Part shown: piece by piece, positions 5,627-51,713 of the stretch | Numbering within the stretch: position 1 is the first letter of the stretch | Layout: every line of letters begins with the position of its first letter | Assembly (NCBI GenBank): GCA_947053455.1 | Contig: CAMRSV010000001.1 | Span: forward strand, 36,937 to 100,936 | Reading direction: 5' to 3' | From: an uncultured Alphaproteobacteria bacterium | Lineage (GTDB): Bacteria > Pseudomonadota > Alphaproteobacteria > Rs-D84 | Length of the DNA stretch: 64,000 nt | Program-made: the position numbers and the translations under genes | Notes under the pieces: generated by a model | Database searches by the model: none | The model's input: only the letters and a program-made list of their open reading frames with translations | What the model was told of the DNA's origin: nothing

Positions 5627-5669
5627 AATTTTCCTTTACCATAAATCAAGTTTATGTAAAAATATGCAT

Positions 5670-5915
5670 ATCACAGAGAATTTCTGTGATGGGGCGTCGA
5701 AACCCCTTATAGAGGGTCCGAATAAATTCGGACATTAATGGCACAAGGAAATAATTAATTATTTTCATAGTTGTGCCGCCTTCCAACCACAAAAGGTTGG
5801 AGGATGGCTGAATATATTGAATAGGCCTGCAATTCTCTATAATTGTTTCGAACCTCCAACCACTTGAACTTTTCCAGTGGTTTTTATTTATTAAAAGATT
5901 CAATGGAGTATAGAA
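5670..5915 (+). promoter_or_regulatory. conserved structured 5' leader, copy 1 (candidate riboswitch/attenuator) upstream of cysteine-rich secreted protein gene
   Basis: Perfect IR ATCACAGA-N5-TCTGTGAT (5670-5690). Box GGGGCGTCGAAACCCC (5691-5706). Hairpin CCTTCCAACC-ACAAAA-GGTTGGAGG (5777-5807). Then GAACCTCCAACCACT fused to terminator-like hairpin AACCACT..AGTGGTT+TTTTT (5850-5886), then RBS GGAG and ATG 5916. The same architecture recurs at three other loci. Confidence 0.7.
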
Positions 5916-6518
5916 ATGAGAAAATATCTTATAACTATTTTTGTTTTGTCTTTATCTTTGCCCGCCCGCGGCAACTTGGTAAGTGGCTCATATAAAGAAG
6001 GTGATTGGTGCTATAGTGATTGCACCTATCAAGGATGCCCGTCCGTCCGCAGATTTTCGTGCGGCGGATATTGCAACATGTATGAAATGCCCGATTGGCC
6101 AATCTGCAATAGTTATAACGAAGATGAATCCTGCGTAATTTGGAAAAGCAGCACAGAAATGTATTATTGCAGCCTAGGTGGGGAACATGCCTGCTACGAA
6201 ATTATTGGTTATGGCAGTAGCAAATATGAGACTTATAACACGACAAACCATAGTGTAAAATACTCTGAAATTCAGTTCGAACCAGATGACAACTATTATG
6301 ACAATTGCTCCATAGAAGACATTATCGAAGTTTCTTATGGATGCGCGGCCGGATATTATGTTTCAAGCGGATATGGTTCTAATATTTATTGTTCGACATG
6401 TCCCAACGGCGGTACAAGTTATATCGGAAATATTTCTCAATCTAATTGTTATTTACCCGCGGGAAATTTTAGCGATGCAACCGGCACCGGACAATATACA
6501 TCAAACTGCTACTGGTAA
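5916..6518 (+). CDS. secreted cysteine-rich protein, paralog 1 (EGF/ephrin-receptor-like Cys repeats)
   Basis: 200 aa with a signal peptide and about 20 Cys. The C-terminal ~60 aa (CAAGYY..C..CP.GG..C.LPAGNF..TGTGQY..C) is shared with the 37001..37618 protein. Confidence 0.75.
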   Translation: MRKYLITIFVLSLSLPARGNLVSGSYKEGDWCYSDCTYQGCPSVRRFSCGGYCNMYEMPDWPICNSYNEDESCVIWKSSTEMYYCSLGGEHACYEIIGYGSSKYETYNTTNHSVKYSEIQFEPDDNYYDNCSIEDIIEVSYGCAAGYYVSSGYGSNIYCSTCPNGGTSYIGNISQSNCYLPAGNFSDATGTGQYTSNCYW

Positions 6519-37000: not shown

Positions 37001-37618
37001 CTAGTTATATGTGCATTGCGCCGACATATTATAAGTTCCGGTATTATCATTGTACGTTCCGGCCGGCAGTTTACATTGCGTGACAGACGTGCTGCCGGCC
37101 GCGCTGGTACCATACGTCGTCGTGCCCGCAGAATTTAATTCACCGGGACAACGCGTGCACTTAAGCGACGATGTCGTACCAACGCCGTAATAGCCCGCCG
37201 CACATCTATATTCATTCGTCGCCGTCTCATCACCAGTTTTTCCGCATCCGGAAACAACATTATATTTTCTTTCGCGACCAGTGCCGGACGGGCGCCATTC
37301 ATTTGTGGTGCGCATTAAGCATCCGCAACCTATAAGGTTCGGGGGGTTATCGCTATCAACAACCGCCGTGGCACCGTTAAACACCTCTCCACACATGGAT
37401 TCACAATCTTCAACATTTCCCGAATATCCATCATCATAATAGCAAAGATTTGACCCATAGTCATAACACTCGTCAACATCATTACATTCGCCGGGTGATA
37501 TGGGCTCACTCACACCACCAAAAGTATAAAGCATATCCACTCCTGGATCATCACTATATAAATAAGCATTTGCCGCAAGCGGAAACACTAGAAACAATGC
37601 GATAACAATGCTTTTCAT
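37001..37618 (-). CDS. secreted cysteine-rich protein, paralog 2
   Basis: Signal peptide present. The C-terminal domain is homologous to the 5916..6518 product (CAAGYYG..C.RCPGE...CKLPAGTYNDNTGTY..C). Confidence 0.75.
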   Translation of the reverse strand: MKSIVIALFLVFPLAANAYLYSDDPGVDMLYTFGGVSEPISPGECNDVDECYDYGSNLCYYDDGYSGNVEDCESMCGEVFNGATAVVDSDNPPNLIGCGCLMRTTNEWRPSGTGRERKYNVVSGCGKTGDETATNEYRCAAGYYGVGTTSSLKCTRCPGELNSAGTTTYGTSAAGSTSVTQCKLPAGTYNDNTGTYNMSAQCTYN

Positions 37619-37795
37619 TTAACCCCTCTTTTTATTACAAAAAAACCACTAAAAATCAGTGGTTGGAGGTTCGAAACAATTATCAGGAATTGTGGGCTTA
37701 TTTAGTTATATCGCCACCCTCCAACCCATGGTTGGGGGAAAGTTTTTTCCTGATAAGGGGTTTCGACACCCCGTCCGCGCAACACCCGCCGACAA
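37619..37795 (-). promoter_or_regulatory. conserved structured 5' leader, copy 2
   Basis: Read in gene orientation: GGGGTGTCGAAACCCC box, hairpin CCCCCAACC-ATG-GGTTGGAGG, then GAACCTCCAACCACT-GATTTTT-AGTGGTTTTTTT terminator-like hairpin, then RBS and ATG. Confidence 0.7.
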
Positions 37796-40314: not shown

Positions 40315-40375
40315 AAACACGCGCCGCACAAAAACAGATTGCGACGTGAAATATTTTCTCATATAATAAAAAATG

Positions 40376-40567
40376 ATATGGGGTGTTCCCATATCGGGGT
40401 GTCAGAGCCTATGTCACGGCGTCCTTTGTTGGACGATAAATCTCCTGCCGGTCGGCAGGAGGGTTGATGTTATATATTGAAGACATCACACAATTTCCGT
40501 GAAATTGCTCTGAACCTCCTGCCACTCTAATAGAGTGGTTTTATTTTGATACGAGGGGTGAGTAAAA
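40376..40567 (+). promoter_or_regulatory. conserved structured 5' leader, copy 4 (compensatory-variant copy)
   Basis: GGGGTGTCAGAGCC box. The hairpin is CTCCTGCC-GGTC-GGCAGGAG instead of CCAACC/GGTTGG. The downstream segment GAACCTCCTGCCACT-CTAATAG-AGTGGTTTT carries the matching change. Confidence 0.7.
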
Positions 40568-41767
40568 ATGAAATTCAAAAAAATATCATATGCACTTGTT
40601 GCAATTATATGTACCATTGACGCATATGGCAAGGATATGCCTTCAAATATAAAAGAAGCATGGGGCAGCCCTACACTAATTTCTGAATCTTGGAGTCGCG
40701 GCAAAGGCCACGACAGCAGCACAAACATGCCAGACCAGACATTCTGGATGAGTAAAAAGGTTCGCGCCGATAACGCAAACGACGAAGCGATTGTAATTGT
40801 ATACATGGCGCGCCAAGTTGTAGAACACGGTGGATACTTTTGCGCGACGCAACTGCGTTCACGAAACAGCGGAAAATCCGGATGCCCGAACATTTGGACC
40901 CAATATCAAAATCCAACCGGCGATTTTGAACGCACATGCTTTTGGTTATGCGAACCGGGATACACCGGCGAAAATTGTGTCAGTGGTAAGGCAAAATCCG
41001 CAGACGCATGCAAATACACAAATTTATCCGCGGCCACACTATTAAAAGATATAGGGTTTCAACAAATGGGTGGCTATGACACCGCAACGGTGGAAAGCGC
41101 CATACATGATGCCGGCGCACGATTTTTTTATAGCAATACAACTCGCAAATCCGACGAATCTGATGTCATCCTTTTGGCAAAAGAATATCTTGAAAACGGC
41201 CACGGAATTGTTGCATCACCCGCAACATTTTCCGCGCACGGTGGCATGTGGAATGCAGAGAATTATTCCGATGAATGGCTGGATTGCAAATATGGCGATT
41301 CTAATTTAACCGTGACCGCTAATGGCGGCGGGTACACAACAAAAAAACTGTGCATGCCGGGATTTGACGGCGAAGATTGCACAACGACATATTGCAAAAC
41401 ATGCGACGATACGCTTGCCAAATACAATGATAAAACAGGTTCCTGCAGTGACTGTATTGAAAACCATATCCGCAACAAAGAAGGCAAATGCGAAAAGTGC
41501 CCGGCCGGAACAACTGCGGTACAGGATAAAAAAATCTGCCTAGAGTGCAAGAAAACCGAATATGTAAAGGATGGCGAATGTGTGCCACGTGATGTAATTG
41601 AAAAAAGCGTGCTTTATAACTGCTATCCGAATGAAAACGCAAATGATTTCAAGGCATGTGTATCAAGTACATGTACAAATGACGCAAAGGTAAAATGTGT
41701 AACCGCGCAAAAACAAATTGGCACCAAAAAATGCACCGGCGGTAAATGGGGTACATGCACAAAATAA
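40568..41767 (+). CDS. secreted cysteine-rich protein with EGF-like repeats (399 aa)
   Basis: Signal peptide present. Canonical EGF-like motifs CFWLCEPGYTGENC and CMPGFDGEDC, followed by a long C-x2-C-rich tail. Confidence 0.7.
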   Translation: MKFKKISYALVAIICTIDAYGKDMPSNIKEAWGSPTLISESWSRGKGHDSSTNMPDQTFWMSKKVRADNANDEAIVIVYMARQVVEHGGYFCATQLRSRNSGKSGCPNIWTQYQNPTGDFERTCFWLCEPGYTGENCVSGKAKSADACKYTNLSAATLLKDIGFQQMGGYDTATVESAIHDAGARFFYSNTTRKSDESDVILLAKEYLENGHGIVASPATFSAHGGMWNAENYSDEWLDCKYGDSNLTVTANGGGYTTKKLCMPGFDGEDCTTTYCKTCDDTLAKYNDKTGSCSDCIENHIRNKEGKCEKCPAGTTAVQDKKICLECKKTEYVKDGECVPRDVIEKSVLYNCYPNENANDFKACVSSTCTNDAKVKCVTAQKQIGTKKCTGGKWGTCTK

Positions 41768-50608: not shown

Positions 50609-50633
50609 AAAACGGGGCATTGCCCCGTTTTTA
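50609..50633. terminator. bidirectional terminator
   Basis: AAAACGGGGCATTGCCCCGTTTTT. Confidence 0.8.
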
Positions 50634-51527
50634 CTTTAATTCAAACAAATGCATTATTATATCACCACCTTCATATGTTGCCTCGTCTGCCAAGCCGGTA
50701 ACATTGGTGTTATTAGTATTTGTATTCCATTGACCCACGGGGGCATATGATGTCGTCGCGGACACATATTTTTCATGTGCTGTGTCGATAAAAAATTGAA
50801 CAATATTATTCCCCAAAATCCCAGCATAACCCACCGGTTGATCAAACACTGCCATATACGCATATGACACGGATGCGGATCGCCCATCCAATGCATCAAT
50901 TAGATTTGGTTTGTCTGAAATCCCAGGCCCCTTGTAACGTGCAACAAACAGGTATGTTCCCGGTCCTATGGTTCCACCCATACACATTTCATCAACCGAA
51001 AAATCATCTATGTTTGAACTGTTTATATTCTGATTTATTTTCGCACAGGATTTTACCCGACGCCATACGCTTATGTCTGATTTCGGAATAAATTTTTCAA
51101 CCGCGGACAATGTCATAAATTTATTTACATTGCCAAGCCCATCTGGCTGTGCATTGGCATTGCGACTAAAATTAACTTCCGGACAACCTATTGCGCCATA
51201 TGTGCATACCGCGCGATGAAGCCCACCCGTACAGTAATGACCCATGCCGCAATTGACACATTCACTGTTATTCATCAAGTACTGGCCAGGCTCGCACCAC
51301 TTGCCCACCCAATAATCTTTCGCCCCCACCCGCAGGCGCAGCGCCCCGGTCGGCGCAGCGGATGAATACATTGCACCATACCATTTCTCGTCTGCAATAG
51401 AAACCGCCAACGCAGGCGAAGTATTTCGCGTGGAATTAAGTGGCACTGACCGGTCGCCAAAATGCAACATGCGCGCATAACATGCGGCATTAAAAAATAA
51501 TGTAAAAAATAAAACTATATATCTCAT
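50631..51527 (-). CDS. secreted cysteine-rich protein, paralog 3 (298 aa)
   Basis: Signal peptide present. The N-terminal half carries C..G.Y....C..C..G.YC.GG repeats related to the other paralogs, and the C-terminal half is Cys-poor. Confidence 0.65.
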   Translation of the reverse strand: MRYIVLFFTLFFNAACYARMLHFGDRSVPLNSTRNTSPALAVSIADEKWYGAMYSSAAPTGALRLRVGAKDYWVGKWCEPGQYLMNNSECVNCGMGHYCTGGLHRAVCTYGAIGCPEVNFSRNANAQPDGLGNVNKFMTLSAVEKFIPKSDISVWRRVKSCAKINQNINSSNIDDFSVDEMCMGGTIGPGTYLFVARYKGPGISDKPNLIDALDGRSASVSYAYMAVFDQPVGYAGILGNNIVQFFIDTAHEKYVSATTSYAPVGQWNTNTNNTNVTGLADEATYEGGDIIMHLFELK

Positions 51528-51713
51528 CTACCGTTACGACGTAATAAATGCCGTCATATAAATCAGACGGCTGGAGGTTAGAAACTATAAAACGGTATAG
51601 TGTCGTTTATTCAGTATATTCACGAGCCCTCCAACCGAATGTTGGAGTTTTTTTCGTCCACACGGACGCCGTTTTAAAGGTTTCTACACCCCACAGCATT
51701 TATCTTATGCTGC
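51528..51713 (-). promoter_or_regulatory. conserved structured 5' leader, copy 3 (diverged)
   Basis: Gene orientation: hairpin CAGCAT..ATGCTG, box GGGGTGTAGAAACC, hairpin CTCCAAC-ATTC-GGTTGGAGG, then CTAACCTCCAGCC fused to hairpin GCCGTCTGATTTATATGACGGC with an A/T tail, then ATG. Confidence 0.6.

Follow-up and report, generated by a model that had tools for sequence, protein, structure and literature searches.

We analysed a stretch of 64,000 nucleotides (the window) from an uncultured Alphaproteobacteria bacterium of the order Rs-D84 (contig CAMRSV010000001.1), in which a leader element precedes four genes. The element is very probably a cis-acting transcription-attenuation leader, the 5' untranslated region (5' UTR) RNA of the downstream gene, that would work as a doubly pseudoknotted ON switch. 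One of its strands, segment B, can pair either with segment A upstream or with segment C downstream. An initial annotation of one of the four leaders, copy 4, had pointed out that all three segments are changed together, and had taken this triple co-substitution as selection on the two alternative RNA pairings of a switch. This claim is supported by more than 120 related copies that co-vary, and we read the base changes in copy 4 as real evidence of selection on RNA pairing and as one instance of family-wide covariation. The evidence for a switch is stronger than the initial annotation stated. The three pairing segments that it described do exist, but two pseudoknot helices (PK1 and PK2), previously unnoticed, belong to the switch as well. 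The parts of copy 4 are as follows.

40339..40367, + strand: promoter (TTGCGA, 17-nt spacer, TATAAT; score 10/12)
40375-40547, + strand: the copy 4 leader, one of four copies in the window
40375..40395, + strand: P0, 5'-terminal hairpin GATATGGG-GTGTT-CCCATATC, with the GNKUU loop type that is the family norm
40396..40411, + strand: P1 (the "box"), consisting of Z1 GGGG (40396-99), linker UG, loop strand Z2 UCAGAGC (40402-08) and local 3' arm CCUA
40414..40419, + strand: Y (UCACGG), the PK2 strand that pairs with the P3 loop
40420..40435, + strand: Px hairpin CGUCC-UUUGUU-GGACG, optional across the family
40442..40449, + strand: segment A (CUCCUGCC), 5' arm of the predicted anti-antiterminator hairpin
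40454..40462, + strand: segment B (GGCAGGAGG), partner of either A or C
40465..40488, + strand: P2 hairpin with AU-rich loop UAUAUAUUGAAG (family consensus GAAUAUAUUGAAUAA); 4/4 pairs co-vary
40491..40507, + strand: P3 hairpin CAAUUU-CCGUG-AAAUUG, whose loop CCGUG(A) (40497-40502) forms PK2 with Y
40507..40513, + strand: J (GCUCUGA), which forms the long-range helix PK1 with Z2 (40402-08)
40515..40523, + strand: segment C (CCUCCUGCC), predicted 3' strand of the antiterminator, overlapping the 5' arm of the terminator
40521..40547, + strand: predicted intrinsic terminator GCCACUCU-AAU-AGAGUGGU, then UUUAUUUU (terminator scan)
40554..40570, + strand: Shine-Dalgarno sequence GAGGGG and ATG (40568) of the regulated gene

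Covariation of the pairing segments and the long-range helices

At the DNA level, copy 4 carries CTCCTGCC (40442-40449), the loop GGTC, GGCAGGAGG (40454-40462) and, after 52 nt, CCTCCTGCC (40515-40523); the hairpin that the terminator scan found reads GCCACTCT-AAT-AGAGTGGT (40521-40539), followed by TTTATTTT. The three tracts are CUCCUGCC / GGCAGGAGG / CCUCCUGCC where copies 1 and 2 show the AACC/GGUU/AACC version, so the coordinated changes keep both alternative pairings. In this respect the sequence of copy 4, with its CTGCC-type tracts, reads exactly as had been claimed.

Related copies were collected by scanning one genome per species (GTDB) with the pattern GGAGG-N4-12-ATATA-N18-34-ATNGNTNNNAACCTCC, in which the variable tract was left free. 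At least 118 loci (designated here by L numbers) are among the pattern matches listed, and more than 120 further copies were found overall. Nearly all of the matches come from metagenome-assembled genomes labelled as uncultured Alphaproteobacteria, Candidatus (Ca.) Enterousia or "Rickettsiales", the names being those on the sequence records, and from human, ruminant, rabbit and other guts. Members of Ca. Enterousia (GTDB order Rs-D84) have genomes of less than 1 Mb, are missing most biosynthesis and are thought to depend on other cells (PMC12306168). For most copies the pattern fixed GGAGG, ATATA and AT.G.T...AACCTCC (part of P3, J and C); the covariation figures come solely from pattern-free positions or from copies that lie outside the pattern. 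A covariance model (R1), built from AACC-like copies alone and with the TGACC class absent from its seed, gave 116 matches, about 11 of them copies that do not fit the search pattern, and recovered TGACC-class copies at E = 1e-12 to 1e-20. In the window, the covariance model finds exactly four copies (E = 3e-25 to 8e-19), and the next best match has E = 0.07.

At the four positions next to GGAGG/CCTCC, B and C form Watson-Crick pairs in 97.6% of cases (124 copies, with the register taken from the pattern only), compared with 63% for permuted partners and 0.6-40% for slid registers. The first position is U-A in 76 copies, A-U in 44 and G-C in 2; the second is U-A in 72 and C-G in 50; the third is G-C in 82 and U-A in 38. 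Judged from these sequences, at least six classes co-vary across all three segments, the counts of the four larger ones being rounded B/C pairings.

AACC/GGUU/AACC: about 72 copies
UGAC(C)/(G)GUCA/UGACC: about 38 copies
UGCC/GGCA/UGCC: 5 copies (copy 4, L024, L048, L093, L114)
AGCC/GGCU/AGCC: 3 copies
CGAC/GUCG/CGAC: together with GGGAGG/CCUCCC
UGAACC/GGUUCA

Outside the search pattern, the core of L008 is altered in all three segments ((A)CUCC / GGAGU / ACUCC), as are the segments of L019 and L081 (UCCCGACC / GGUCGGGA / UCCCGACC), and L017 carries GAUUGGAG / CUCCAAUC. In cross-class chimeras, an upstream region loses about 5 kcal/mol when it is combined with a foreign B, and B loses about 6 kcal/mol when it is combined with a foreign C; here and below, folding energies are nearest-neighbour values without terms for pseudoknots or tertiary contacts. 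In the model alignment of 116 copies, 91.5% of the cells of the OFF structure are paired and 24 of its 26 pairs have changed on both sides, a level of pairing that none of 500 shuffles reached. The A:B helix is 96.9% paired, with both-side changes in all eight of its pairs, and B:C in the ON structure is 99.3% paired (67 copies, alignment A3). Because the TGACC class has one extra base pair, the ON structure is not countable by columns on the model-made alignment A4, and pattern-anchored registers and A3 were used instead. The excess of G.U pairs over A.C mismatches (249 versus 42) indicates that it is the sense-strand RNA of the gene in which the pairing acts.

The copy 4 locus is also present in other metagenomes (L001:2890-2952, L002:1541-1603 and L004), with few polymorphisms within the leader. 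None of the strain variants in four other metagenomes falls within A, B, C or the pseudoknot strands. They change GT to AC in the loop of the A:B hairpin (40451-52) and T to G in the innermost terminator pair (40528), and the strains differ by 1 nt in the length of the A-run after the -10 element.

Our model of the leader is that of a doubly pseudoknotted attenuator. In whole-leader folding, the "GGGGYGU box" belongs to P1, a small hairpin with the stem GRGG:CCYC. The 7-mer in the P1 loop, UNNNAAC, is exactly complementary to GUUNNNA, which lies directly 5' of A-CCUCC, the start of segment C; one nucleotide lies between PK1 and C. The box had been presented as a stand-alone element, which it is not: it is one strand of a long-range helix. 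In 120 anchored copies, the pattern-free positions of PK1 are 92% Watson-Crick, as against 51% (maximum 57.5%) with permuted partners; the copies that pair poorly, about ten, are those in which the P1 site was mis-anchored. Over 17 distinct complementary 7-mer pairs occur, among them UCGAAAC:GUUUCGA (27 copies), UCAGAAC:GUUCUGA (12) and UAGUAAC:GUUACUA (9). Copies outside the pattern also compensate the positions that the pattern fixed (GAC:GUC, CAC:GUG, UAC:GUA, AGC:(G)CU). In the window, PK1 is UCGAAAC:GUUUCGA in copies 1 and 2 and UAGAAAC:GUUUCUA in copy 3, and in copy 4 UCAGAGC (40402-08) with GCUCUGA (40507-13) is a further compensated segment pair. The flanks had been called unchanged in copy 4, but the bases just before the flank differ there (GCTCTGA versus GTTTCGA) and are compensated in the box (TCAGAGC versus TCGAAAC).

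The second long-range helix, PK2, joins the loop of the P3 hairpin to Y, a strand 2-4 nt downstream of P1. Perfect complementarity of at least 5 nt is found in 94% of 108 leaders and in 2.8% with swapped partners, and the P3 loops comprise 83 distinct sequences. The four window copies have CUCUAU:AUAGAG (copy 1), CCUGAU:AUCAGG (copy 2), CCGUUU(U):(A)AAACGG (copy 3) and CCGUGA (40497-502) with UCACGG (40414-19) (copy 4). The loops of P1 and P3 therefore each pair with the tail 3' of the other hairpin. By eye, the local P1 stem co-varies too: CCUC is the partner of GAGG in about 28 of 29 cases, and CCCN or CCUC that of GGGG. P1 and PK1 are arranged like an H-type pseudoknot whose first loop has 2 nt and whose second stem has 6-7 bp.

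Other copies, remaining anatomy and downstream genes

The remaining three leaders of the window, their pseudoknots and the open reading frames (ORFs) that follow them are located as listed here.

5671..5886, + strand: copy 1 leader, with A 5780-88, B 5795-5803 and C 5853-61; followed by ORF 5916-6518
5697-5703 with 5845-51, + strand: PK1 of copy 1
5709-14 with 5835-40, + strand: PK2 of copy 1
37638..37793, - strand: copy 2 leader, with A 37730-38, B 37718-26 and C 37661-69; followed by ORF 37618-37001
37760-66 with 37671-77, - strand: PK1 of copy 2
37749-54 with 37682-87, - strand: PK2 of copy 2
51541..51713, - strand: copy 3 leader, with A 51641-47, B 51628-36 and C 51569-77; followed by ORF 51527-50631
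51680-86 with 51579-85, - strand: PK1 of copy 3
51669-75 with 51589-95, - strand: PK2 of copy 3

The tracts CCAACC / GGTTGG / CCAACC, given by the initial annotation for copies 1-3, are present in copies 1 (5780-5861) and 2 (37661-37738), but copy 3 has CTCCAAC / GGTTGGAG / CCTCCAGCC, and its B:C helix includes one U.G pair. The flanks are not constant across the copies either: in copy 3 the flank GAACCTCC is TAACCTCC, and the terminator is GCCGTC..GACGGC, internally compensated, instead of ACT..AGTGGTT. The arrangement CCAACC-N2-8-GGTTGG occurs twice in the window, where 0.04 occurrences are expected by chance.

Across the family, a -10 element with at least five of the six TATAAT bases is found in 109 of 121 leaders, and its end peaks sharply 27-28 nt before the GRGG of P1; TTG stands at the -35 position in 85 of these 109. 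This placement of the promoter implies that the transcript starts with P0, a hairpin of 8-9 bp. Copy 4 had been thought to duplicate a box-like sequence in this hairpin. The letters are indeed there (ATATGGGGTGTTCCCATAT at 40376-40394, inside P0), but they are not peculiar to copy 4, and GGGGTGTT is a normal P0 loop. The loop is usually GNKUU, and the commonest combination of loop and closing pair in the family, GGUGUUC (13 of 122 copies), is that of copy 4, so the "duplicated box" is the family norm; copy 2 likewise has GGGTGTT in P0. No co-varying partner in cis was found for the P0 loop (duplex energy -4.89 native versus -4.81 swapped). GGGGTG is seen a third time in copy 4, at 40555-40560 within the Shine-Dalgarno region (GAGGGGTGAG) of the regulated gene.

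P3 co-varies, with CAAUU/AAUUG in some copies and CUAUA/UAUAG in others. Px (GCGUC..GACG) is missing from 11 "short" leaders, is a simple hairpin in 75 and is expanded in 36 "long" leaders, which mostly belong to the TGACC class (L011:1392-1500 on the - strand, L016, L018, L026, L031, L036, L040 and others). The long-type insertion contains GGAAUAUAU..UUAU, a stretch similar to the P2 loop, followed by a G+C-rich hairpin and by U5-6, with a T5 run in 24 of the 36. From its sequence, this insertion looks like a second, upstream intrinsic terminator, the 5' arm of which could instead pair with the GCGUC strand of Px.

Of 124 leaders, 114 have a hairpin with a T-run tail 3' of C, eight of whose nine pairs co-vary; this predicted terminator lies 20-35 nt upstream of the start codon. 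One leader without a terminator, L046 (2704-2854, - strand), carries C (CCUCCAA), CCGACCAC and then UUGGAGG, which is the gene's Shine-Dalgarno sequence 5 nt before the ATG. Its expression platform appears to be translational, C sequestering the Shine-Dalgarno sequence in a hairpin that B:C would open. Swapped expression platforms are typical of riboswitch-like elements. Two further loci show unusual sequences. At L075:1756-1800 (+ strand), GGTTGGAAGGTGTCGGAATATAACTGAATACGGCGC lies directly 3' of the terminator; a further B/P2-like module seems to begin there, perhaps a tandem copy or a degenerate one. L057:3400-3494 is a long near-perfect inverted repeat at a contig end that gives spurious matches to microRNA precursors on both strands (mir-548, 67 bits; mir-15, 48 bits).

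An ORF on the same strand follows 113 of the 124 leaders within 300 nt. Its start is mostly about 40-70 nt downstream of C, too close for another promoter to fit in between. Among these 113 first ORFs, 94 have an N-terminus resembling a signal peptide and 63 contain at least 4% Cys. Pfam and NCBIfam recognised almost nothing in the downstream proteins; the few family matches are weak Ephrin_rec_like/TNFR-like ones, an outer-membrane beta-barrel, and HTH_3/XRE in a set of proteins of 60-116 aa, several of which follow short-type leaders. In these short-type leaders (L029, L033, L035, L080, L082, L087, L110 and L118) Y is followed by a linker and A, and most of them precede XRE/HTH-like (helix-turn-helix) proteins of 60-95 aa. 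This suggests a regulatory tier under the same switch.

The gene behind copy 4 (40568-41767) encodes a Cys-rich protein of 399 aa with a signal peptide. All four regulated genes of the window (5916-6518, 37001-37618, 40568-41767 and 50631-51527) encode Cys-rich proteins with signal peptides, and no family shared by the four was detectable. They contain repeated Cys motifs (C..AGYY..C..CP.G) with weak TNFR/ephrin-receptor-like matches and are reminiscent of variant surface proteins. The neighbouring genes are chromosomal ones (exonuclease III, AddB and acyl-CoA ligase).

Comparison with known RNA systems

By its sequence, the leader would fall into the class of terminator/antiterminator/anti-antiterminator attenuators: a promoter lies upstream, a hairpin with a U-tract precedes the ORF, and mutually exclusive helices that share a strand each show covariation. 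Rfam 15 recognised no family anywhere in the window at the gathering threshold, and when copies 4 and 1 and 15 related loci were scanned permissively, sRNA-Xcc1 and c4-a1b1 were the only families matched, both below threshold. Full-text literature searches on Enterousia and Rs-D84 yielded no paper on an RNA element. The leader family appears to be undescribed so far.

With the platforms of riboswitches, T-boxes and attenuators (SAM-I, T-box) the element shares a promoter-proximal structured 5' UTR with an intrinsic terminator just before the ORF, a 3' strand of the antiterminator that reaches into the terminator's 5' arm, a third segment that masks the strand of the antiterminator, and an interchangeable platform, mostly a terminator but Shine-Dalgarno sequestration in L046. 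It differs from them in that A is a sequence copy of C, so that B picks between near-identical partners, in that two reciprocal loop-to-tail helices seal off the sensor domain, and in having probably tens of copies per genome of less than 1 Mb, with secreted proteins as the regulon. The leaders match no riboswitch or T-box model in Rfam. As in a metabolite riboswitch, a conserved multi-helix domain supported by covariation (P1, P2, P3, PK1, PK2) is present upstream; the downstream genes do not belong to one metabolic or transport pathway that would name a ligand. The leader was rejected as a T-box, since RF00230 matched none of the leaders scanned, B of the TGACC class has no UGG, and the downstream genes are unrelated to tRNA charging.

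The closest likeness in Rfam is to the small RNA (sRNA) family sRNA-Xcc1 (RF02221), whose model matched the B-to-C core with 30.5, 36.8, 36.8 and 34.3 bits against a gathering score of 53 (local E-value to 3e-5) at four places.

L011:1291-1365, - strand: sub-threshold sRNA-Xcc1 match
L074:487-564, + strand: sub-threshold sRNA-Xcc1 match
L009:1122-1199, - strand: sub-threshold sRNA-Xcc1 match
L046:2756-2833, - strand: sub-threshold sRNA-Xcc1 match

The core aligns with the full model, including a closing helix of 9 bp (GG..GG.GG / CC.CC..CC), a hairpin with an AAUA(C/U)A loop and a second hairpin. It has a three-way junction and shares the 6-7 nt UU..A. junction and the CCACC tail. The matches stay short of the 53-bit threshold, and none was found in window copies 1 and 4 at E up to 5-10. 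The sRNA-Xcc1 of Xanthomonas is an RNA of its own, 88 nt long and with mapped ends (PMC2996969); it has also been found upstream of symE in integron cassettes (bioRxiv 10.1101/2025.06.18.660453) and next to C4 and IsrK RNAs in islands (PMC12189769). In contrast, the core described here sits 100-150 nt into a longer leader with the competitor A and a P0-P1-Y domain, the promoter being 100-150 nt upstream of B, and is not an independent RNA of about 88 nt. The likeness suggests that the sRNA-Xcc1 family, itself poorly understood, may be part of a wider class of three-way-junction RNAs that find their targets via a hairpin loop and the adjacent junction.

The c4-a1b1 matches are weak and lie on P0-P1 (16.1 bits at window positions 5657-5710, + strand, and 19.7 bits at L023:3027-3080, - strand, against a gathering score of 46.7). 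In the C4 system of phages P1 and P7, which Citron and Schuster are said to have described in 1990, one transcript holds two target copies that flank a complementary element, a1b1 - c4(a'b') - a2b2; coordinated changes between C4 variants reportedly underlie heteroimmunity, and loop-to-single-strand pairings are said to give the specificity. The leader resembles C4 (RF01695, RF03163) in logic, with a doubled target that flanks its complement, compensated variants and loop-to-single-strand pairing. However, it has no phage immunity (icd-ant) context, relies on predicted intrinsic termination instead of a translational block with Rho-dependent polarity, and has no a2b2-like copy of Y or Z2 downstream of it. 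A pairing of the P3 loop with the downstream mRNA, which would be the analogue of a2b2, gave no signal (-4.09 versus -4.21). Membership in C4 fails on score, context and transcript boundaries.

Probable mechanism, alternative explanations and significance

A sigma-70-type promoter would start the transcript at P0, and the polymerase would then pass P0, P1, Y, the optional Px, an A-rich linker, the A-loop-B hairpin, P2, P3, J, C and the terminator in this order. B can take one of two partners, A, which makes the anti-antiterminator, or C, which makes the antiterminator. As a hairpin with a small loop, A:B would form first during transcription, and PK1 and PK2 would fasten the 5' domain to the core. 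The terminator's 5' arm and C have 3-5 nt in common, so that B:C would destroy the terminator; in copy 4, C overlaps G40521-C40523 of the 8-bp terminator stem, and once B:C has formed, what remains of the hairpin would be short and no longer joined to the U-tract. Compared helix with helix, B:C is the stronger of the two in 95% of copies (mean difference from A:B 3.6 kcal/mol), and RNAalifold picks B:C on the core alone. The minimum-energy fold of the full leader is the terminator state, and when pseudoknot terms are left out, A:B together with the complete terminator is 6-14 kcal/mol more favourable than B:C in each of the four window leaders. These energies suggest that termination is the default and that read-through probably needs an effector input favouring B:C. 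An effector that stabilises the pseudoknotted fold with B:C would let C displace A and lead to read-through, which would make the element an ON switch, and A would occupy B so that C cannot win unaided. The hairpin in L046, which B:C would open, supports the assignment of B:C to the ON state. The regulon would consist of the secreted or surface proteome and small XRE regulators of a gut symbiont with a reduced genome.

Several points weigh against this interpretation. Its ON or OFF direction was derived from energy models in which pseudoknots and tertiary contacts play no part. No effector was identified for the leader, which is known here from sequence alone, and the downstream genes, mostly for lineage-specific secreted proteins, with some XRE regulators and outer-membrane proteins, point to no metabolite. 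The conservation of the bases that the search pattern fixed, loop L2 included, is partly ascertainment. As sequence classes are inherited, the independent triple events number about eight, not about 120, although each of them required a coordinated change at three places. Finally, an extension of PK1 by GRGG:CCUC is present in all four minimum-energy folds but has no covariation and clashes with the co-varying local P1 stem; it was rejected as part of PK1 and is kept only as a possible detail of the OFF state.

What the effector might be is where the attenuator model divides. It is conceivable, though rather doubtful, that the leaders represent a new class of riboswitch, in which the double-pseudoknot aptamer responds to some global signal (a second messenger, an ion or a host-derived molecule, for example) and, through what would be tens of copies, switches on the whole secreted and surface proteome of an obligately partner-dependent gut bacterium; PK1 and PK2 would then serve as private "address codes" that prevent mispairing among paralogous leaders. 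A similarly tentative explanation keeps the same attenuator and makes the effector a sequence-specific RNA-binding antiterminator protein that reads the P2 loop (GAAUAUAUUGAAUAA) and stabilises the three-way junction with B:C. The most conserved unpaired element is indeed this AU-rich hairpin loop of 15 nt, a similar GGAAUAUAU.. stretch precedes the second terminator-like hairpin in long-type leaders, and the regulon comprises tens of unrelated genes for secreted proteins rather than a pathway. On the other hand, no candidate protein was found, the conservation of L2 is inflated by the search pattern, and several copies outside the pattern vary or replace L2. The known targets of protein-dependent antiterminators are simpler: RAT, ANTAR, PyrR, TRAP and HutP sites consist of simple hairpins or of repeats and are not known to form double pseudoknots. 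A protein or a global signal is suggested by the AU-rich P2 loop with its invariant sequence, by the similar stretch in the long-type Px insertion and by the non-metabolic character of the regulon. The leader fold, strictly compensated and much more complex than the protein targets, speaks for sensing by the RNA itself. We therefore rank a global signal that the RNA senses directly (a small molecule, a second messenger or an ion) slightly above an RNA-binding protein, and this is the weakest step of our analysis.

A leader that has no dedicated effector, and acts as a kinetic or physical sensor (of RNA polymerase speed, nucleoside triphosphate pools, temperature or Mg2+) or as a fixed low-level attenuator, is unlikely. 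The small mean difference in energy between A:B and B:C, the toeholds that C has on either side of B, and a genome of less than 1 Mb with probably few regulators (PMC12306168) would fit such a device, but two hypervariable and strictly compensated pseudoknots and the conserved P0-P3 exceed what a simple kinetic attenuator needs. Still less probable is a trans-acting small RNA gene akin to sRNA-Xcc1 or C4, the product of which would be the terminated RNA of about 170 nt, with read-through being incidental. Its own promoter and terminator, the recurrent sub-threshold sRNA-Xcc1 matches on the B-to-C core (L011, L074, L009, L046) and the weak c4-a1b1 matches on P0-P1 all recall such a gene. However, the ORF that follows nearly every leader within 300 nt (113 of 124) on the same strand has no room for a promoter of its own, Y and Z2 satisfy the P3 loop and J in cis, the P3 loop shows no complementarity to the downstream mRNA, and hypervariable loops argue against a common target in trans. 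That A and C are direct repeats, B their inverted repeat and the whole element multi-copy could also reflect repeats acting as DNA (a protein-binding site, a recombination site or a miniature mobile element), an explanation to which we give almost no credence: the copies vary in letters yet keep their complementarity, which a shared DNA-binding protein does not explain, the excess of G.U over A.C is strand-specific, and position and orientation are fixed relative to promoter, terminator and ORF.

Attenuation by a leader peptide and ribosome was rejected. The AUG that is frequent before GGGG is not conserved (GUU, UUG, GAC and GGC variants occur), the 18-codon ORF that begins at 40411 in copy 4 has no counterpart in copies 1-3, and no start codon lies at a usable distance past the Shine-Dalgarno-like GGAGG of B.

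If the attenuator model is right, a single RNA design would control perhaps 2-6% of the genes in a bacterium with about 900 genes, an estimate that comes from four copies in the 64-kb window and about one extra copy per 50 kb in related loci. The controlled Cys-rich secreted proteins would be the likeliest mediators of contact with the host or a partner cell. The design is unusual in that one strand has two near-identical partners and two hairpins are each looped to the other's tail. It would bring a large and structurally rich family, in which five helices co-vary and which has two pseudoknots, into the small set of orphan riboswitch-like elements, and the leader offers a concrete handle on regulation in the uncultured Rs-D84 / Ca. 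Enterousia.

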